A model generated the notes under the pieces. That model was given only the letters and a program-made list of their open reading frames with translations, was not told the origin of the DNA and searched no databases. Position numbers and translations under genes: made by a program. Positions 258-52,264 of a stretch of DNA of 64,000 bases are shown piece after piece. The stretch covers positions 218,009-282,008 of the forward strand of contig CAVWRC010000010.1 of assembly GCA_963757235.1 (NCBI GenBank), in the 5' to 3' direction. This stretch comes from an uncultured Solirubrobacterales bacterium (GTDB lineage: Bacteria; Actinomycetota; Thermoleophilia; Solirubrobacterales; Solirubrobacteraceae). How positions within the stretch are numbered: position 1 is the stretch's first letter; every line of letters begins with the position of its first letter.

Positions 258-1759
258 CGCAGCCCCCGGCAGAGCGGCAGCGTGAAGGTGAATGCCTCGG
301 CCTGCTGCCCGTACATCCGGTGGAGCTCGAGCCGGGCCCGGACCGCCTGCTCGTGGACCTCGGCGCAGGCCCGGCGCAGGTCGTCGGGATCGCGTCCGGA
401 CACCGTCACGAAGCCCGCCAGCCGCACCTCCGCGTGGCCGGCGGCGAGCTCGGCCTCACGCCGCACGGCCGACTCCTGCGCCTGTCGCTGCCGCGCCGTC
501 TCAGCCTGTCCGAACCGGTGGCGCAGCTCGCGGTCGGCGTGGTCGCGTGTCACGGCGGCCTCGGCCTCGCGCGTCGAGCGCTCCGGCGTGATCGGCTCGA
601 GCGTCACCGCCACCGTGCGCACCACGCTCGAGGCGCCCAGCAGGGCGTCCATGAACATGGGCGAGACGTCGACGCGCGGCCACTGCGCGATCCAGAACGT
701 GGCGTGTAGGGCGCCGTCGGCCCGGTAATGCTCCCAGGACTCGTCCGCGCCGAGGGGCCAGGCACCCGACTCGGCGAGTCCTGCGCGACCCGTATCGGCC
801 GCCTCAAGCGCTGCCAGCTCGGCACGGGCATAGGGATCGAACGCGGTCCGCAGCGCCCGCGCAAGCTGGCCTGCGCTGAGCGCTCCGAGCACCCCCACCT
901 CGGCCGCCTCGATCCCCTGCGCGACGCGTTCGGTCTGCTCGAGCAGGGCGCTGATGCCGTCGTCGGCGCCGCGATCGGCACCGTCGGCGTGGCGCGGATC
1001 GATCTGGACCGCGATCAGCACCTCGTGTTCCTGGGCGGCGCGGGCGGTCGCGCCGATCAGCTCGAGGTAGGACTCGATCATCGGCGTGCCCCGCAGCGGG
1101 ATGCGTGGATCGCGCTCGTCGTGCAGCCAGCGGGCCAGTTCGTCACCCTGCGCCGGAGCGGTCCGCTCGAGCCATTGGATGCGCCGGATCGGACCGCCGG
1201 CGGCTCCCGAGAGGACCAGGCCCCAGCGGGCCAGCCGGCGCTCCTGCGCCTCTGGGTCGAGCAGCGAGAACGCGATCACGCGGCAGGCCAAGACGGCTGT
1301 CAGTCGCCGGCGCCGATGGTCGGACAGCACCCCGATCGCACGGTCCGCGTAGGGCACGTCGAGAATTCGAACGCCCCTGAGCGCAGCCGGCGGACGCGGG
1401 CGCGGCGGTGAGAGCAGGCGGCGAAACGGGCTGGATCGCTCGGCCGCAAACGTCCCGGCGGCCGGGGCGCGTGAACGGAAGCGCAACCGGCGCCTCGCCC
1501 AACGCAGCGAGAACGAGAGCACGACCGGCATCCACTCCTCCGGCGTGCGCCGTCCCACGGGCGCGAACGCGACGGCCAGCGAGACGCCGAACCCAGCCAT
1601 CCCGAGGAACGCGCCGCCGGCCGTGGGCGCGCCATCCAGGATCGCGATCGCGGCCACCGCGCCGGCCGCGACGGCGCCGGCCTGGCCGAGGCGCAGTTGG
1701 CCGAGGAGTCCGCGCCGCTCGAGCGGGCCGAAGCGGTAGGTGACGCGCTCGTCGGTCAC
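254..1759 (-). CDS. SCO6880-like / PrgI(VirB3)-like conjugation protein
   Basis: GTG at 1759 overlaps the upstream TGA. Starts MTDERVTYRFGPLERRGLLG, has a TM hairpin, and ends with the HAEVRLAGFVTVS...YGQQAEAFTFTLPLCRGL motif typical of this family. Confidence 0.8.
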   Translation of the reverse strand: MTDERVTYRFGPLERRGLLGQLRLGQAGAVAAGAVAAIAILDGAPTAGGAFLGMAGFGVSLAVAFAPVGRRTPEEWMPVVLSFSLRWARRRLRFRSRAPAAGTFAAERSSPFRRLLSPPRPRPPAALRGVRILDVPYADRAIGVLSDHRRRRLTAVLACRVIAFSLLDPEAQERRLARWGLVLSGAAGGPIRRIQWLERTAPAQGDELARWLHDERDPRIPLRGTPMIESYLELIGATARAAQEHEVLIAVQIDPRHADGADRGADDGISALLEQTERVAQGIEAAEVGVLGALSAGQLARALRTAFDPYARAELAALEAADTGRAGLAESGAWPLGADESWEHYRADGALHATFWIAQWPRVDVSPMFMDALLGASSVVRTVAVTLEPITPERSTREAEAAVTRDHADRELRHRFGQAETARQRQAQESAVRREAELAAGHAEVRLAGFVTVSGRDPDDLRRACAEVHEQAVRARLELHRMYGQQAEAFTFTLPLCRGLR

Positions 1760-3162
1760 CGCGCATCCTCGTTCGGCCAGACCGGGGTCGAGTCGAAGCG
1801 CTCGCGGTCGAGCTCGAGGGCGGGTTGCTCCGAGAAGGTCTCGGCTCGTGAGTCGCCTGATTCGTCCCGGCCTGGCGGTGGGGCTGGCGGTCCGGCGGGC
1901 GAGTCGGCCGGCGGTTCGGCGGGCGCGTCGGCCGGTTCGGGCGGTTCGGCGGGCGCGTCGGCCTGCGGTCGGGCAGACGCTCCGCTTCCGGACCCCGGTC
2001 CGGGACTTCTCGACGGCGGACCGCCGGCCCCGGCGCTTCCGGCCTCGGCCGCCCGCCGCATCTCTTCCGCGCGCCTCATCCATCCCTCTTCGCCCCGCCG
2101 GGCCTGCGCCTCCGCCCGCATCTCCTGGGCTCCGATTGGCCTGAGCTCGCCTCGCAGCGGCCCTGCCGCGCCCGACGCGATCTCGGCCAGCGGGATCAGG
2201 CGTAACAGCGCCCAGGGCGAGAACGCCGCCAGCATGATCAGGACGGCGCCGGCCATCAGGCCGGTCAGGTTGCCGGCGGAGCTGACCGCGGCTCCCCCGA
2301 GCGACAGCACCGCGACGATCGCGAACTTCGACAGGATCAGCGCGACCAGCAGCTCTACCGCGCGGATCGCCCAGATCCGCCGCGCCGGCCACACGAAGGC
2401 GGCGAAACCGAGCGGGAGCATCAGCACGATCACGTACACCGCCGCCTCGCGCAGCAGCAGCTCGACCCACAGCGTGAACGCGGCCGCGATCATGAACAGG
2501 CCGACGAGGAAGGCGAGGAAAGGGGAGCCGCCCGCTGCGGCGGCCGTGGCGACGATGCCGATCCGACCGAGGAAGTGCGCGCTCGCGTGCCCGGCCGCGG
2601 AGGAGATGAACGAGCAGAGCTGATCACAGGCGGCCAGAAGCAGCATGGTGAGCGGCGCGGCGATTGCGATCGCCAGCATGGCCAGCGGCAGGTATCCGAA
2701 CGCCGCGCGAGCCAACATCGAGACGTCAGAGCGGATCAGCGCCTGGACCGCCGCCGCGAACAAGAACGGCAGCGTCAGCACCGCAGCGATTGCCGCCATC
2801 CGCCAGTAGGTCGAGGAGAACCATGTGGTCCGCAGCTGCGGGCTGGTCGTGTTGCCCAGCGCGGACGCAGTGTCGTTCAGCAGTGTCTGGGCGGAACCGG
2901 TCACCCACCCGTCGATCCCGGCGATCACCGCGTTGGTCGTGGTCGAGGCGACTGCGCCGGCCGCGCCACCGACAAGGCCGCCGGCCGCTCCGGGAATACT
3001 GCCCGTGAGTAGGTCGCCGCCCGCGTTCAGCAGCGAGCTCCCCCCCGGGTTCAGCGCCGAGGTCAGATCCGCCTCGGCCGGGGTCGCGAACAGCGCCGAC
3101 CCACCAGCCGCCACGACGACGCCGATTACCACGGTGAGCCGCGCGAGCCGGCGGACCCTCAT
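1756..3162 (-). CDS. VirB6/TrbL-like polytopic T4SS membrane protein
   Basis: ATG at 3162 overlaps the pilin stop (ATGA). Multiple TM helices, LLREAAVYVIVLMLPLGFAAFVWP motif, Pro/Ala-rich C-tail. Confidence 0.8.
   Translation of the reverse strand: MRVRRLARLTVVIGVVVAAGGSALFATPAEADLTSALNPGGSSLLNAGGDLLTGSIPGAAGGLVGGAAGAVASTTTNAVIAGIDGWVTGSAQTLLNDTASALGNTTSPQLRTTWFSSTYWRMAAIAAVLTLPFLFAAAVQALIRSDVSMLARAAFGYLPLAMLAIAIAAPLTMLLLAACDQLCSFISSAAGHASAHFLGRIGIVATAAAAGGSPFLAFLVGLFMIAAAFTLWVELLLREAAVYVIVLMLPLGFAAFVWPARRIWAIRAVELLVALILSKFAIVAVLSLGGAAVSSAGNLTGLMAGAVLIMLAAFSPWALLRLIPLAEIASGAAGPLRGELRPIGAQEMRAEAQARRGEEGWMRRAEEMRRAAEAGSAGAGGPPSRSPGPGSGSGASARPQADAPAEPPEPADAPAEPPADSPAGPPAPPPGRDESGDSRAETFSEQPALELDRERFDSTPVWPNEDAR
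1911..1963. repeat. 23-bp direct repeat encoding ADAPAEP units in the VirB6-like tail
   Basis: gcggttcggcgggcgcgtcggcc at 1911-1933 and 1941-1963. Confidence 0.85.
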
Positions 3163-3467
3163 TTCGCCGTCGTCCCCAGATGCTGGAAGAAGTTGACCAG
3201 CCCGGGGCCCGCACCGATCACCAGCGCCGACGCGCCCGAGATCACCGCGGCCATCCGGCCCCGAGCCGCGTAGTGCGGGTTGTGCGCATGCGACGCGAGT
3301 GCCCACAGCCCGGCGCCAACGAACGCGCCGATGAGCGCGATGGCCAGCGACCAGGCCTCGGCGCCGTTCACGAGCTGCTGAAGCACGTTGCTGCCCGGTA
3401 GACCGGCGGGGTTCGGCGTGGCCGTGACGTCACCGGCGATGACGAGCGGTCCAGCAAGAAATGTCAT
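3159..3467 (-). CDS. VirB2/TrbC-like pilin (DUF6112-like)
   Basis: 102 aa, 'VTATPNPAGLPGSNVLQQLVNG' plus two hydrophobic helices; RBS GGGGAG upstream; first gene of the operon. Confidence 0.8.
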   Translation of the reverse strand: MTFLAGPLVIAGDVTATPNPAGLPGSNVLQQLVNGAEAWSLAIALIGAFVGAGLWALASHAHNPHYAARGRMAAVISGASALVIGAGPGLVNFFQHLGTTAK

Positions 3468-3479
3468 GTCAGTCTCCCC

Positions 3480-3573
3480 GAGTCTAATTGAGCCAATTGA
3501 ATTCGTAAGACCCTATCAATACTAATTTAGTTGTGGTAGGGTCGAACGACTCAATTAAGTCTCAATTCGACTC
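3480..3573. promoter_or_regulatory. 94-bp imperfect palindrome holding mirror-image divergent promoters
   Basis: Left arm gagtctaattgagccaattgaattcgtaagaccctatcaatacta, centre att, right arm is its imperfect reverse complement; strongly AT-rich versus the flanks. Confidence 0.8.
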
Positions 3574-3576
3574 AAC

Positions 3577-4095
3577 ATGTCTGTACTGGAGAATCTGGAC
3601 GAAGGCGCCCGCCCGGTCGATGTCGGTGAGCTGTATGAGCTGCTGGCCAAGCGGCTGGAGCAGATCGTGCGACTCGACGTGCGCGCTCCCGACGTGGTCG
3701 TCGAGGACGCCTGTCAGTTCGCGTGGAGCCGGCTCGTCCACCATCGCGACCGCGTCCATCGGGAGACGGTCATGACCTGGCTGGCTCGAACGGCCGTGCA
3801 CGAGGCCGTCAAGCTGCTGCGACGTGATCGGCGAGAGCTCTCGATCGACGCGGCTCCGGAATGCGCGGTCCCGGTGGCGGTGGCGTCGAGCTTCCCGCCA
3901 CCGCACACGCTGGTCGAGAGGCGAGAGCGGCTAAACGAGCTGCAGCATCTATCAACCCGTCAGCAGCGTGCCCTTTGGTTGCACGCGTTCGGGCTGAGCT
4001 ATGCCGAGATCGCGGAGAACGAAGGATGCACGGTGCGCACCGTCGAGCGCCAGCTACTCCGGGCCCGGCAACGGATCAGGCAGGACGCCGACTAG
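3577..4095 (+). CDS. ECF-type sigma-70 factor
   Basis: Region 2 (EDACQFAWSRL...WLARTAVHEA) and region 4 (LSTRQQRALWL...GLSYAEIAE...TVERQLLRARQRI); 172 aa. Confidence 0.85.
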   Translation: MSVLENLDEGARPVDVGELYELLAKRLEQIVRLDVRAPDVVVEDACQFAWSRLVHHRDRVHRETVMTWLARTAVHEAVKLLRRDRRELSIDAAPECAVPVAVASSFPPPHTLVERRERLNELQHLSTRQQRALWLHAFGLSYAEIAENEGCTVRTVERQLLRARQRIRQDAD

Positions 4096-4101
4096 TAGCC
4101 G

Positions 4102-4512
4102 CTAGCGCGCCCGCCCGCGCTTGCGCCGCCGGCGCTCGGCCGGACTCAGCTTGCGCGGCTTGGCCCGCGGCTTTGTCCCGTAACGGGGGCCGCTACCGTC
4201 TGGCGACTCGCCGGGGCGGTGACGGACCGGCGCGCGCTTGCGCGCATCGCGCCAGATGTACAGCGAGATACCGCCCAGCACGACGAGCGCGCCGATCCCG
4301 ATGATGAGCGCCGAGTTGCCGGTGAACGCGCTCCCGCTTCCGGCCGTCGCGGACGTGGAGATCGTCGGGGCGGCGGCGGTGGTGGTCGACACCGTTGGCT
4401 GCGGTAAGGGTTCCGAGAAGGGATTAGACGTGGTCGACTGCGCGATCGCCGTAGCCGGCCACGCGAACGCCGCCGAAGCCACGGCGGCAAGGACAACCCG
4501 GGTCGATCTCAT
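4102..4512 (-). CDS. exported/membrane-anchored hypothetical protein
   Basis: Signal peptide, S/T/P-rich stalk, one TM helix, basic tail. Confidence 0.75.
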   Translation of the reverse strand: MRSTRVVLAAVASAAFAWPATAIAQSTTSNPFSEPLPQPTVSTTTAAAPTISTSATAGSGSAFTGNSALIIGIGALVVLGGISLYIWRDARKRAPVRHRPGESPDGSGPRYGTKPRAKPRKLSPAERRRRKRGRAR

Positions 4513-18167: not shown

Positions 18168-18193
18168 AACCTTGACACGACCGTGTCAAGGTT
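18168..18193. promoter_or_regulatory. perfect palindromic operator over the metF promoter
   Basis: AACCTTGACACG-ac-CGTGTCAAGGTT; on the minus strand TTGACA-N18-TACGGT-N8-ATG. Confidence 0.7.
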
Positions 18194-29234: not shown

Positions 29235-29269
29235 CAGTGACTTCAGTTGCAGAAATTTTTCAGTCACTG
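29235..29269. promoter_or_regulatory. inverted repeat (candidate TetR operator)
   Basis: CAGTGACT-N19-AGTCACTG just upstream of the TATGCT -10 box of the tetR gene. Confidence 0.55.
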
Positions 29270-29327
29270 TAGAGTTCTGGTGCATGAACGAAAACGCTGT
29301 CATCGAAGCGCGGCGATCTGCGGGGGC

Positions 29328-45036: not shown

Positions 45037-45053
45037 GGCACGCTAGTCTAACA

Positions 45054-45073
45054 GAGAATGAGACCGATTCTCA
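45054..45073. promoter_or_regulatory. Fur/Zur-like box
   Basis: GAGAAT-N7-ATTCTC overlapping TGAGA-N5-TCTCA, between the divergent ABC operon and the Fur-family gene. Confidence 0.6.
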
Positions 45074-49729: not shown

Positions 49730-50983
49730 CTAAGCCGCCGTGCGCTCGGACAGGGAGCGAGGCTGCGCCGCCTGGACCCGCGCCAGGAGGTCGGCGACCT
49801 CCTCGTTCTCGCCCAATGCCAGCGCCCGCTCGCACGCCTCGACGCATTCGCTGAATCGATCGGTGCGCGCGAGCGCGTGGGCGTAGCTCGACCAGGCGCT
49901 CTGTGATTCCGGCTCCAGACGCGTGGCGCCCTCGGCGGCCGAGACCTCGGCGCCGACGTCGCCGGCCAGGTGGTAGGCGAGCGCCAGCGTGAGTAGACCC
50001 TCGACCGTCGGCCCGACCGCCCGGGCCTGCTCGAGCGCCTCGATCGCCCCTGCGCGGTCCATCAGCCTCAGGCGAAGCCGGCCCAGTCGCTCCCAGGCCG
50101 AGGCGTCGGCCGGGGCGCGGGCGGCGGCGCGGGCGGCGGCATCGGCGGCCAGGTCGATCGCCCCCATGTCCTCGTAGATCCGGGCGGCGAAGCGCTCGGG
50201 GGTGGGGCGATCGGCCTCGGCACGTGACCAGTCCCGCACCGCCCGGGCGGCCGCCGGCAGGTTTCCGGCCTGCCAGAAGGCGGTCGTGAGCAGCCGCAGG
50301 ACGACCGGATTGTTCGGCTCGGCGTCGCGCGCGTAGATGAGTCGCTGGGCTGCCAGCGCGGCGTCACCCTCGGCGAGGGCGTGCTGGGCGGCGGTCATGA
50401 AGCGCTGTACGCGATCGGCCGCGGGGTCGGGCTTGGAGAAGTCGACGAACTGGAGCGAGCCGGCCGGGACGGTTCGCACGCCGACCGAGAAGCGAACTCG
50501 CGCCCATTGCTGCACCTCCTCGTCGTCGCCTGAGAAGTAAATGCCGGTCACGGTCCCCACGCCCCATTCGGGATACGAGGTACAGCGCGCGTAGCGGTGG
50601 ACGACCGAGTGATCGGGCACCCGCGAGCCGAACGGGTCGTTCCTGGCGCGGTCCTCGGCGGCGGCGCGCTCGCGCTGCTCGGCCTCGTACGCGCGCCGGC
50701 CGGCCTCCTCTCGTGCCTTGCGCGTGGCCGCCGCCGACACCTTGACCGCGTTGCGCGTGACCCGGCCGCCGCGCGAGGTCTCGGCCAGCTGCTCGAGCTG
50801 ATCGGCCGCCTCGTTGATCGCCTGGAGGTGGCGTTGATGCTCGTGCTGGCGCCCGGGGGGCGCGATATCCGGATGCCAACGCTTGGCCATCCGTCGCCGT
50901 GCGAGCTGGACCGCCCGCTGATCGAACGGCGGCTCGAGCTCGAGGAGGAGGAGGGCTTGCTCAACGTCGAGGATGCGAGGCAT
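49730..50983 (-). CDS. J-domain + Tudor-like + TPR protein
   Basis: AKRWHPD, QAINEAAD; YPEWGVGTV...VRF; C-terminal TPR-like helices. Confidence 0.8.
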   Translation of the reverse strand: MPRILDVEQALLLLELEPPFDQRAVQLARRRMAKRWHPDIAPPGRQHEHQRHLQAINEAADQLEQLAETSRGGRVTRNAVKVSAAATRKAREEAGRRAYEAEQRERAAAEDRARNDPFGSRVPDHSVVHRYARCTSYPEWGVGTVTGIYFSGDDEEVQQWARVRFSVGVRTVPAGSLQFVDFSKPDPAADRVQRFMTAAQHALAEGDAALAAQRLIYARDAEPNNPVVLRLLTTAFWQAGNLPAAARAVRDWSRAEADRPTPERFAARIYEDMGAIDLAADAAARAAARAPADASAWERLGRLRLRLMDRAGAIEALEQARAVGPTVEGLLTLALAYHLAGDVGAEVSAAEGATRLEPESQSAWSSYAHALARTDRFSECVEACERALALGENEEVADLLARVQAAQPRSLSERTAA

Positions 50984-51063
50984 GACCAGATTACGTTAGC
51001 GGCGCTGCCAAGCCGTTTGCGCCGCGAGCGGCCCGTCGGCGCCCGGTGCACGGCGCCGCCCAG

Positions 51064-51088
51064 GACCCGACCCGCAACAAATTAGCTT
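51064..51088 (+). promoter_or_regulatory. third copy of the GACCC-N10-AAWTTAG motif
   Basis: gacccgacccgcaacaaattagctt; 16/22 ungapped identity to the minus-strand arm at 3522-3543. Confidence 0.6.
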
Positions 51089-51130
51089 CATTTGCAGCCA
51101 GGTCGACTGGGTGGACGTAACGTGCCCGTC

Positions 51131-52264
51131 GTGGCGAGCACAGCGGGCAACGGGCGACCCGGCGGCGTGATTACGACGGTGGTCAGCGTCGGGGCGATCG
51201 TGGCCGCAGGCCTGGGCGTCGGTGTACTCGCGCTCCTGACAATCGGACTCGGCCAGGACGATCAATGCCAGGCCCCGGTGGGCGGCGCGGTCACCGGCCC
51301 CGGGGCAGGGATCGCGCTCGGGCCACCGGGCACCGGGCAGCTGGTGGGCGCCACCGAGTACGGCGGCCCCGGCGATCCGAGCAGCGGCGTGATGGGCTCG
51401 TCGGGGGCGAACCTGATCGAGTTCCCCGACAGCTACGCCGAGCTCGGCGGCATCAGTTTTCAGACCGCCACCGCGATGGGCGGGCTGCCCTACCTGACGC
51501 CGCTGCGGATCACCTGGGGGAACCGCTCGGCGATCGCCTACAAGCGCGACATCGGCCGCGGCGGCGGCCCGATCGACGGTCTGCCCCGCGTGCTGGACCT
51601 GTGGTGGGAGTTGGCCGGGCGGCTCGGGATCCCCTACGAGAACGGGTTGTGGTCCGGTCCGGTGCAGATCGAGCGCCCGCCGCCGGCCGGCGCCGGCAAC
51701 CTCCTCGGCCAGAGCGCTGTCAGCACCATCGACGCGAGCGCGTTGATCGCACCGCCGGCCGCGGCGCAGGACCCCGCCGTGTGCGCGCCGGCGGCTGCGC
51801 CGACCGGCGTCCCGATCACCAGCGCCGATCACGCCCAGCTGCTCCCGAACGGCCTCGCCGCCGCGCCGGCGGACGCGCCTCTCGCCGTGCAGGGCATCAT
51901 CGCCGCCGGCAACCAGATCGTCGGCAAGCCGTACGTTTACGGCGGCGGGCACGGGTTGCCGCTGTCGGAGATCGCGCCCGCCTACGACTGTTCGAGCAGC
52001 GTCGAGCACCTTTTGTTCGGGGGCGGACTCCTGCCCGTGACCTACGACGCGGCGTCGGGCACGCTCGAGTCCTTCGGGGCGCCCGGACCCGGCCGGTGGG
52101 TCACGATCTACGCGAGCGCCGACCACGTGTTCATGTACGTGGCCGGCTTGCGCTGGGACACGCACAACGCGGCGGGCCCGGGTGACGGCAGCACCGGGAT
52201 CGGCTGGCATCCGCTGATCCGCAGCTCGGCCGGGTTCGTTGTGCGCCATCCGGTGGGGCTGTGA
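51131..52264 (+). CDS. cell-wall hydrolase: TM anchor + DPBB/RlpA-like + NlpC/P60 (VirB1 analogue)
   Basis: QDDQC after the TM; ATEYGG...KRDIGRG...RVLDLWW; KPYVYGGGH, YDCSSSV, DHVFM. Start at GTG 51131 or TTG 51092. Confidence 0.8.
   Translation: MASTAGNGRPGGVITTVVSVGAIVAAGLGVGVLALLTIGLGQDDQCQAPVGGAVTGPGAGIALGPPGTGQLVGATEYGGPGDPSSGVMGSSGANLIEFPDSYAELGGISFQTATAMGGLPYLTPLRITWGNRSAIAYKRDIGRGGGPIDGLPRVLDLWWELAGRLGIPYENGLWSGPVQIERPPPAGAGNLLGQSAVSTIDASALIAPPAAAQDPAVCAPAAAPTGVPITSADHAQLLPNGLAAAPADAPLAVQGIIAAGNQIVGKPYVYGGGHGLPLSEIAPAYDCSSSVEHLLFGGGLLPVTYDAASGTLESFGAPGPGRWVTIYASADHVFMYVAGLRWDTHNAAGPGDGSTGIGWHPLIRSSAGFVVRHPVGL

Follow-up and report, generated by a model that had tools for sequence, protein, structure and literature searches.

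The intergenic palindrome and its flanking genes

The DNA analysed here (the window) is a 64,000-nucleotide stretch of contig CAVWRC010000010.1, from an uncultured Solirubrobacterales bacterium (class Thermoleophilia), an origin with which the similarity of its proteins agrees. Near its left end, a gene for a DUF6112/T4SS_pilin-like protein (3159–3467, − strand; T4SS, type IV secretion system) and a gene for a sigma-70 factor of the extracytoplasmic function (ECF) type (3577–4095, + strand) lie on the two sides of an inter-gene spacer of 109 bp (3468–3576), a pilin gene and an ECF sigma gene having been named as the flanks in an initial annotation made from the sequence alone. The spacer holds a 94-bp imperfect palindrome (3480–3573), and all the features that the annotation had described for it were found at the positions given there. 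We suggest that the palindrome corresponds to back-to-back promoters of the housekeeping type gated by a shared repeat operator, a reading that we hold with about as much confidence as doubt. Such a module most likely switches the T4SS-like operon, of which the pilin-like gene is the first gene, and the ECF-type sigma gene together.

The inner arms of the palindrome (3503–3525 and 3527–3549) match at 18 of 23 positions and the outer arms (3480–3492 and 3561–3573) at 12 of 13, with centres of symmetry that differ by one base. The 13 matches in 16 previously quoted for the inner 16-mers were recovered, and the arms, said to align over about 45 nt, gave 37 identities over 47-nt arms in a gapped arm-to-arm alignment. 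This alignment scored 22, against −5.5 ± 3.8 for dinucleotide shuffles, none of which reached 22 (0/2000). The heptamers reported from both outer arms were located at 3486–3492 (AATTGAG) and at 3550–3556 and 3561–3567 (CTCAATT), and these three, all inside the palindrome, are the only exact copies of CTCAATT/AATTGAG in the 64 kb. The palindrome (GC content 0.38) is surrounded by an AT-rich island (3448–3607, GC content 0.44), the longest and most AT-rich of a window with an average of about 70% GC.

Conservation of the gene pair and of the spacer

The comparative set comprised 80 loci, with one genome per species, and all the genomes were metagenome-assembled genomes or metagenome contigs. The sigma gene was divergent from the DUF6112 pilin-like gene in 78 of the 80 species-level loci, and the pilin-like protein was 70–96% identical in 78 of 80 relatives. 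The orthologous spacers aligned nearly gap-free and, in most Solirubrobacterales species, they kept the mirror symmetry, the absence of which had been named in the initial annotation as grounds for abandoning its proposal. The symmetric divergent control region that it put forward is therefore supported. Columns were counted over 64 sequences, with alignment anchors picked by similarity to TGCTAGGGT (up to three mismatches at any position), a choice that partly selects for overall similarity, but not for the pattern of invariant and variable columns.

Each arm contains a TGnTAGnnT 9-mer, and the distance between the two 9-mers was exactly 15 bp in 64 of 79 sequences and in all 31 independent metagenome loci matching the pattern, which were selected by regular expression. 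The sequence of the central 15 bp varied from AT-rich to GC-rich, with, for example, the GC-rich agaggggcggacgga in some species. The distance from the 9-mer hexamer, our candidate −10, to the box of repeat units was 13 nt in 31 of 31 independent metagenome loci. On the right arm, CTCAATTAGACTC began exactly 27 nt past the T of TGCTAG in 56 of the 64 sequences, and this offset was unchanged whether the start codon followed directly or after a Shine-Dalgarno leader. The left-arm offsets from TGCTAG to CTCAATT clustered at 26–28 (42 sequences) or at 16–18 (21 sequences), so the left arms differ from one another by one whole 10-bp unit. The left arm is one such unit shorter in about a third of the species, and the last unit on the pilin side always abuts a conserved GGAGG. 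We are almost certain that this architecture, which we read as promoter plus operator, is conserved across the Solirubrobacterales.

The two arms could be alike because they pair or because each is a copy of the same module. Mirrored positions were complementary in 68.0% of cases, falling to 26–45% when one arm was slid by 1–3 columns. However, shuffling the right-arm letters among species gave 68.2 ± 0.7%, with 304 of 500 shuffles as high as the observed value, and covariation between the arms is thus absent. A permutation analysis of concerted evolution of the arms yielded z = 0.4 at the −10 and spacer columns and z = 2.5 at the units, a slight effect driven by one column, and the arms of the same genome were no more similar than those of different genomes. 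Since cross-species shuffling reproduces the symmetry, base pairing is not under selection; judged from these alignments, the arms resemble each other as two copies of one module, to which each conforms. The cruciform suggested in the initial annotation is not borne out, since the compensatory conservation proposed as a check was looked for in the orthologous spacers and none was found, and since the left arm varies by one 10-bp unit.

A minority architecture, in which the sigma-side arm is intact and the pilin-side TGCTAG is missing or replaced, was observed in loci L025, L026, L031, L046, L053, L061 and L065, all of distant relatives. In L025, L026 and L031, two GAGTCTAATTGA units about 27–38 bp apart stand in place of the pilin-side TGCTAG. 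Some lineages, judging from these sequences, have evidently remodelled their promoter on the pilin side.

Candidate promoters of the two arms

The right arm contains an extended −10-like element, TGGTAGGGT (3534–3542, + strand), with the hexamer TAGGGT at 3537–3542 and a predicted transcription start for the sigma gene near 3549. In the 64 sequences, its columns read T (62), G (64), C (53), T (64), A (64), G (64), G (48), any base, and T (64). Its left-arm counterpart, TGATAGGGT (3510–3518, − strand; hexamer TAGGGT from 3515 to 3510), with a predicted start for the pilin/T4SS-like operon near 3503, has the columns T (58), G (63), C (52), T (64), A (64), G (63), G (53), any base, and T (64). 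The two elements flank the 15-bp central spacer (3519–3533, symmetry centre 3526), which is conserved in length and not in sequence. Both arms therefore have the pattern of an extended −10 element (TGn-TAnnnT), with TA and the final T in 64 of 64 sequences, the G of TG in 64 and 63 of 64, and variable hexamer positions 4–5, and the same pattern was found in 31 independent metagenome loci. Region 3.0 of sigma factors, which group-4 (ECF) sigmas do not have, contacts the TG that precedes the hexamer, and TAGnnT is the usual form of the −10 hexamer in high-GC Actinomycetota. On the basis of the column patterns, TGnTAGnnT is probably the −10 element.

The initial annotation had read the promoters differently, as GACC-N15/16-TAG(T). 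The string GACC-N15-TAGT is indeed present on both strands; however, on both strands its TAGT sits in the central spacer, the sequence of which is free to vary, and the GACC taken as a −35 is merely the tail of the TAGGGTC of the opposite arm, i.e., of the other arm's candidate −10. This assignment was therefore not retained.

The short left arms have no more than about 21 nt between TAGnnT and the conserved GGAGG, too little for a repeat-built promoter to fit upstream of the ribosome site. TGnTAGnnT is thus the only −10 candidate consistent in all species and, by symmetry, the assignment on the pilin side implies that the sigma-side TGnTAGnnT should be a −10 too. The two hexamers lie 21 bp apart on opposite strands, and the predicted starts (3503 on the − strand and 3549 on the + strand) are about 46 bp apart; given the size of the RNA polymerase footprint, two complexes at this distance must overlap. 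One near-identical contig from a soil metatranscriptome (168 nt, depth 3.4, 1 mismatch) covers 3334–3501, on the pilin side, with an end that lies 9 nt beyond the left-arm hexamer and 2 nt downstream of the start predicted for the − strand, in weak agreement with the left-arm assignment. The same run contained more diverged pilin-gene contigs, and the 5' part of the sigma gene had no coverage.

A scan of 3300–3750 for consensus sigma-70 promoters and terminators gave no matches, a blank that we attribute to the poor −35 and to a scanner blind to extended −10 promoters. Several other assignments were tried on the aligned arms and rejected. ECF-type pairs fitted by hand (GGAAC/AAC...CGT/GTC and the RpoE-like TCAACTT-N14-TCAAy) yielded none that fits both arms, as they had the wrong spacings (14 or 28 nt) or placed the start inside the coding region or the ribosome site. 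The pair expected of an autoregulated ECF promoter (AAC-like −35 and CGT/GTC-like −10, 16–17 bp apart) was not conserved on either arm. The use of TGCTAG as a −35 with a repeat unit as −10 fails in the species with a left arm one unit shorter. A leaderless sigma mRNA from TAGACT would leave 4 nt between the hexamer and the ATG, a distance that is not kept in species with Shine-Dalgarno leaders.

Across the window, TGnTAGnnT occurs at 5 sites, against 3.9 expected, and is thus not enriched. TAGTCT at 45042–45047, with the ATG start codon of the gene at 45058 another 10 nt on, is a probable leaderless promoter, and this site (45042–45060) supports the view that −10 hexamers in this genome usually have the form TAGnnT. 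The second most AT-rich spacer of the window (29235–29286) contains an 8-bp inverted repeat (CAGTGACT...AGTCACTG, 19 nt apart) and TTCAGT repeats. The inverted repeat is directly upstream of TAGAGT (29270–29275), with an ATG 8 nt on, and from its layout this spacer looks like a leaderless-type promoter with an operator.

Repeat arrays and a candidate DNA-binding protein

Downstream of each candidate −10, the arm is built of repeat units. The right-arm array, the proposed operator (3550–3576, + strand), consists of CTCAATTAAGT (3550–3560), CTCAATTCGA (3561–3570) and CTCAAC (3571–3576), running into the ATG, and its columns have a high information content. The left-arm array (3480–3502, − strand) consists of ATTCAATTGG (3502 to 3493), CTCAATTAGA (3492 to 3483) and CTC (3482 to 3480), and abuts the ribosome-binding site, a Shine-Dalgarno GGGGAG (3474–3479, − strand), at the position of which GGAGG is conserved in left arms. 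Each arm has two to four head-to-tail units of 10–11 bp with the consensus AATTnGnCTC, TCA recurs every helical turn, and the AATT/ATTT cores recur every 10–11 bp in a fixed register to the −10, as in direct repeats of the BldC type. The unit motif (up to two mismatches) gave 139 matches in these spacers and none elsewhere in the 770 kb of sequence fetched. The CTCAATT heptamers, which the initial annotation took to be additional regulator sites, belong to these conserved repeats, which have the appearance of regulator sites. We consider it somewhat probable that the units act on DNA.

The repeat box was also found outside this spacer. When metagenomes were scanned for the exact two-unit 16-mer TTAGTCTCAATTAGAC, at least 120 stretches were obtained; at least 53 were of low GC content and correspond to chance matches, and at least 67 were of high GC content. 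Among the 67 high-GC matches listed, 59 were sigma/pilin loci, four were upstream of a gene for an HTH_17 protein, two were in the spacer of a DnaJ-TPR/380-aa gene pair and two were unexplained. In four more HTH_17 loci (L215–L218), which were fetched by protein and not selected for the box, all carried TTnGTCTCAnTTnG, 19–24 nt downstream of a TANNNT hexamer (e.g., TAGTAT) and 6–31 nt upstream of the start codon. The box is therefore present upstream of the HTH_17 gene in eight of eight loci (L122, L125, L189, L199 and L215–L218), with TTnGTCTCAATTAG in the leader. The presence of the box in the gene's own leader implies, as far as sequence can tell, that the HTH_17 gene may be autoregulated.

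The HTH_17 gene is not encoded in the window; it encodes a protein of 95–125 aa from a large family, the named members of which belong to Solirubrobacteraceae in the source annotations. The protein (Pfam HTH_17, E-value 3e-18) is a minimal MerR-like winged helix-turn-helix without a coiled-coil or effector domain, with an invariant recognition helix (LKLNQQTVRNWIDQG) and a second conserved motif, GPSAxDFWGG. In its AlphaFold (AF2) model, the core has a predicted local distance difference test score of 86–91, and the best fold match of this model among PDB chains is 6AMA, BldC on smeA-sffA DNA (E-value 9e-4, TM-score 0.81, root-mean-square deviation 1.2–1.5 Å), followed by the Pukovnik Xis (4J2N) and then by BldC-whiI. 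The sequence search agrees with a BldC/Xis relationship, more weakly, with 4J2N as the best sequence match. The neighbours of the sigma locus offer no other candidate regulator, the 60-aa, 138-aa and 136-aa neighbouring proteins having no DNA-binding domain. From the shared box and the modelled fold, we tentatively put forward the conserved HTH_17 protein as a possible binder of the repeat units.

A possible second, degenerate box, AATTAGCTTC ATTTGCAGCC (51080–51099, + strand), lies in the window within the spacer 51002–51172, between a DnaJ/TPR gene (49739–51001, − strand) and a divergent Pfam-less gene of the 380-aa class (51173–52261, + strand). The orthologous spacers in L151 and L167 carry the exact 16-mer, the window orthologues being 81% and 68% identical, and this gene pair may, on these sequences, be another member of the same regulon. 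In L215–L218, the HTH_17 gene is followed by a Pfam-less gene of 155–157 aa; neither the box-linked 380-aa protein nor the 155-aa gene downstream of HTH_17 had any Pfam match, even at E = 1. The two unexplained loci among the matches listed, L132 and L185 (GC 0.64), carry the exact 16-mer in unrelated surroundings, between the end of an efp-like gene and the start of an aspartokinase-like gene in L185; these boxes could be chance matches or further sites.

In the mechanism that we propose, each arm would provide an extended −10 element (TGnTAGnnT) for the primary, sigma-A-type sigma factor, and the directional unit arrays, extending from about −3/+3 through +1 to the ribosome site or start codon, would act as operators. 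By polymerising head-to-tail on the arrays, a small BldC/Xis-type winged-helix protein would gate both promoters at once, in the simplest case as a repressor that occupies the region transcribed first. The result would be a joint switching of the T4SS-like (cmd-like) operon and of the ECF-type sigma gene, which lacks an anti-sigma partner. A more far-reaching version, in which an order-wide regulon is controlled by a BldC/Xis-like protein that gates mutually exclusive back-to-back promoters from mirror-image AATT arrays, with the sigma factor extending the programme further, is considerably more speculative, and we regard it as rather doubtful; if it held, the module would be a compact developmental or DNA-transfer switch, with an evolutionary link to BldC-controlled development in Streptomyces.

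Weighing the proposed module against alternatives

Several observations weigh against this reading of the spacer. Fifteen of the 79 sequences depart from the canonical centre, all of them from distant relatives (sigma identity of about 65% or less), and most of these keep the right arm, with a different left promoter. The support for the start site is weak: it comes from a single low-depth contig end, and DNA may be present in the RNA run. A good −35 is lacking, the position being occupied by CTAGCA, which matches TTGACA at three of six bases. For a −10, the conservation of the C in TGC and of the G in TAG is higher than strictly needed, and two independent promoters do not explain the exact N15; both features would also be expected if a dimeric factor bound CTAGCA-N15-TGCTAG. 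Alternatively, each extended −10 might also serve the other promoter as its weak −35 (CTAGCA, 18 bp upstream). For the HTH_17 protein, the gene is unlinked to the sigma locus, and co-occurrence is established for the same family only. The period of the units (10–11 bp) and the position of the conserved C differ from the 9-bp AATTXXXX(C) of BldC, the conserved unit bases being a G at +2 and a C at +4/+6 after AATT, outside the BldC register. The residues aligned with Lys26, Arg30 and His46 of BldC differ, with an Asn aligned to Arg30. Finally, all four gene contexts have the box in sense orientation, which would also suit a role in 5' untranslated region (UTR) RNA.

If CTAGCA-N15-TGCTAG were the site of a symmetric dimeric (or dimer-of-dimers) factor, with promoters elsewhere, such as TTGCTA-N18-TAGTCT for the sigma gene, the exact 15-bp spacing with free sequence and the additional conservation of C and G would be expected. 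The right-arm TTGCTA/CTGCTA with TAGTCT 18 bp later is a passable sigma-70-type promoter, which would also explain the offset of 27. However, a final T that is invariant although two variable positions separate it from TAG is what a −10 typically shows, and is odd for a half-site. On the left arm, the position of TAGTCT often reads TTGGCT, and a third of the species do not have that unit, so that no promoter would fit before GGAGG. A start from TAGGGT also agrees with the contig end at 3501, and we consider a dimer site with separate promoters unlikely.

It is also conceivable that the units act in RNA, as 5'-UTR CUCAAUUAGAC repeats that bind an RNA-binding protein or as an unstructured AU-rich enhancer of translation, mainly for a sigma mRNA without a Shine-Dalgarno sequence. 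The units are downstream of the predicted starts, and the sigma gene (in most species), the HTH_17 gene (in L122) and the 380-aa gene (in L167) start 5–6 nt past the box without a Shine-Dalgarno sequence. Nevertheless, the right-arm units are fixed to the −10, at 27 nt, rather than to the start codon, with the same offset in the species with Shine-Dalgarno leaders, and the box-to-start distance of the HTH_17 genes ranges from 6 to 31 nt. A small hairpin (AGUCU-CAAUU-AGACU) is not kept in the left arms or in the HTH_17 leaders, and there was no Rfam family match, the sole sub-threshold hit, to mir-580, being a chance hit caused by the hairpin shape. The helical phasing of 10–11 bp and the AATT cores are, by contrast, DNA-shape features of the type used by BldC/Xis proteins (PMC5859096). 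These considerations make an action of the units in RNA quite improbable.

The initial annotation favoured control by one factor, and the adjacent ECF sigma could be thought to read both arms, as GACC-N15/16-TAGT or as a CTAGCA −35, N18 and a TAGnnT −10, giving a symmetric positive autoregulation and a sigma-dependent T4SS. The sigma gene is always adjacent to and divergent from the operon, both arms carry the same elements, the DNA-reading regions of the sigma factor are invariant across the order, and the exact N15 would serve as a constraint on −35/−10 spacing. Moreover, ECF sigmas commonly autoregulate, and HrpL is a known case of a secretion system with a dedicated ECF sigma. However, the TAGT and GACC of the first version fall in the non-conserved spacer and in the hexamer of the other arm, respectively, the conserved TG is the contact of a region 3.0 that is absent from ECF sigmas, and no AAC...CGT/GTC pair at 16–17 bp suits both arms. 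The box-bearing HTH_17 promoters use TAGTAT-type hexamers without CTAGCA upstream. The sigma factor is only distantly similar to solved ECFs, and its specificity is therefore not predictable. Nothing in the comparative analysis favoured feedback of the ECF sigma on the spacer, the positive feedback and bistability suggested in the initial annotation are speculative, and we consider it improbable that the ECF sigma reads both arms.

A DNA secondary structure, in the form of a cruciform or of a hairpin in single-stranded DNA or RNA, is very improbable and largely refuted by the comparative data: the palindrome folds as single-stranded DNA at −22.6 kcal/mol, far better than shuffles (z = −7.5), but there is no compensatory covariation, the inner arms are imperfect (78%), about one species in three has arms of lengths 10 bp apart, the central 15 bp are not palindromic beyond chance, and neither predicted transcript spans both arms.

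Genes flanking the spacer

The sigma gene (3577–4095, + strand), without a Shine-Dalgarno sequence, encodes a protein of 172 aa with the sigma2 and sigma4 domains only. It matched Pfam Sigma70_r4_2 (E-value 1e-13), Sigma70_ECF and, below the cut-off, Sigma70_r2, and NCBIfam TIGR02937 with 52.5 bits (cut-off 42.9), and it has the region composition of a group-4 (ECF) sigma. Its PDB relatives are distant, and all are ECFs. More than 1000 homologues were found, from Solirubrobacteraceae/Solirubrobacterales where named, with a conserved start codon, and residues C46 (region 2) and C151 (region 4) were invariant in 14 of 14 aligned homologues. The gene is monocistronic, and no adjacent anti-sigma gene was found in any of the loci tabulated, which fits control at the level of transcription. 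Downstream, a convergent gene (4102–4512, − strand) that is conserved in relatives encodes a protein of 136 aa without a significant Pfam match; it has a signal peptide, a segment rich in Ser/Thr, a single transmembrane helix and a very basic C-terminal tail. The gene calls disagree here, with a 93-aa call on the opposite strand in some contigs.

On the other side, the pilin-like gene encodes a membrane protein of 102 aa (Pfam DUF6112, E-value 1e-6; T4SS_pilin, E-value 3e-3). It is followed, all on the − strand, by a SCO6881-family/TrbL-like gene (1756–3162; NCBIfam SCO6881_fam, E-value 7e-15, with a weak match to TrbL_3), the start codon of which overlaps the pilin stop codon (3162/3159), a SCO6880-family/EccE-like gene (254–1759; NCBIfam SCO6880_fam, E-value 1e-86) and, according to the gene tables, a gene for a 60-aa membrane protein (75–257). 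In near-identical contigs, further operon genes lie to the left of the window's edge and encode a VirB4-like ATPase, a VirD4/TraG-like coupling protein and an acidic protein of 138 aa. The T4SS Pfam set of the window and relatives L081–L085 (P-loop_TraG/AAA_10; T4SS-DNA_transf, TrwB_AAD_bind and TraG-D_C; DUF6112/T4SS_pilin) contains the components of the conjugative type, and there were no relaxase or integrase Pfam matches within 10 kb on either side. The surrounding housekeeping genes (citrate synthase, dCTP deaminase, a Wzy_C protein, amine oxidase, pyridoxal-dependent decarboxylase and glycerate kinase) are the same in species with a sigma factor only about 70% identical, so the variable insertion expected of an integrative and conjugative element (ICE) was not observed. 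The constant housekeeping surroundings and the lack of relaxase and integrase point to a vertically inherited chromosomal T4SS-like system rather than to an ICE. The operon thus appears to belong to the core chromosomal equipment of the order, and it is related to Streptomyces cmdABCDEF.

Elsewhere in the window, a perfect 11-bp inverted repeat, AACCTTGACAC-GACC-GTGTCAAGGTT (18168–18193), lies at the junction of two − strand genes; to judge by its sequence, it could be an operator or a hairpin.

Significance and comparison with known systems

The Solirubrobacterales are among the most abundant soil Actinomycetota, and little is known of their gene regulation. The spacer provides a precise cis-regulatory map, with two candidate −10 elements, an exact 15-bp spacer and countable repeat units, for a vertically inherited T4SS-like system whose Streptomyces cmd relatives affect chromosome segregation and development. 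A trans-acting factor, the HTH_17 protein with its BldC/Xis-like fold, is nominated as well, together with at least two further target loci. If this is correct, regulation by head-to-tail filaments of the BldC type would extend to a deep-branching actinobacterial class, in a new geometry. If the role of the HTH_17 protein is not confirmed, the region would still be a well-conserved, conventional divergent promoter-operator. No published account of the element, or of the pairing of the sigma factor with a T4SS in Thermoleophilia, was found in the searchable literature.

The small ECF sigma is comparable to HrpL (ECF32), a transcriptionally controlled sigma factor dedicated to a secretion machine, with its own hrp box targets and a sigma-54-dependent promoter of its own. 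Both are small sigma2+sigma4 factors without a cognate anti-sigma, encoded beside a secretion system; however, no ECF-type target promoter is identifiable here. As for the spacer, E. coli bioA/bioBFCD, with bioO, and Tn10 tetR/tetA have compact, partly palindromic spacers in which overlapping divergent promoters are controlled by one regulator. The overlapping polymerase footprints of the divergent promoters predicted here are a shared feature. By contrast, the operators of those systems are dimer palindromes between or over the −10 and −35 elements, whereas here directional arrays lie downstream of each −10, and a sigma gene is one of the two genes under control.

Xis-type proteins form head-to-tail polymers on direct repeats phased at roughly one turn of the helix, and the HTH_17 protein has, in its model, the same winged-helix fold as the Xis excisionases (lambda Xis, Pukovnik Xis 4J2N and RdfS). 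Unlike Xis proteins, which are recombination directionality factors of mobile elements, the HTH_17 gene and its candidate sites are chromosomal, the latter on promoters, and no integrase was found near the gene in the protein-fetched loci L215–L218. BldC, a minimal MerR-like winged-helix protein and cooperative binder, is the best PDB fold match of the modelled Solirubrobacteraceae HTH_17 candidate. It binds AATT-containing direct repeats head-to-tail as 2–4 protomers, with the wing reading the AATT minor groove (PMC5859096), and can repress or activate (PMC6428758). The arrays described here resemble those of Streptomyces whiI and smeA-sffA in having short AATT direct repeats, head-to-tail and two to four per site, at promoters (PMC5859096, PMC6428758). 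They differ in their unit of 10–11 bp (AATTnGnCTC), rather than the 9-bp AATTXXXX(C) in which a C-G pair is read by Arg30, and in that two mirror-image arrays surround back-to-back promoters. The HTH_17 protein, in turn, differs from BldC in its recognition-helix residues and in its C-terminal GPSAxDFWGG, for which there is no room in the 68-residue BldC.

The closest studied relatives of the operon are Streptomyces cmdABCDEF and the SCO6871–6884 cluster, a chromosomal T4SS-like set with developmentally regulated expression (PMC2782261). Both sets are of non-ICE type, with a VirB4-like ATPase and SCO6880/SCO6881-family membrane proteins; however, no divergent sigma gene or repeat operator is reported for the Streptomyces set (PMC2782261), and the cmd genes are not mentioned among the BldC targets in PMC6428758. 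The Solirubrobacterales set differs also in encoding a VirD4/TraG-like coupling protein. Divergent promoters with a shared operator and BldC/Xis repeat arrays are thus already known from other systems; what sets this region apart is the arrangement of mirror-image directional arrays on overlapping predicted promoters, around a centre of exactly 15 bp, and the pairing of a secretion-type machine with a sigma gene.

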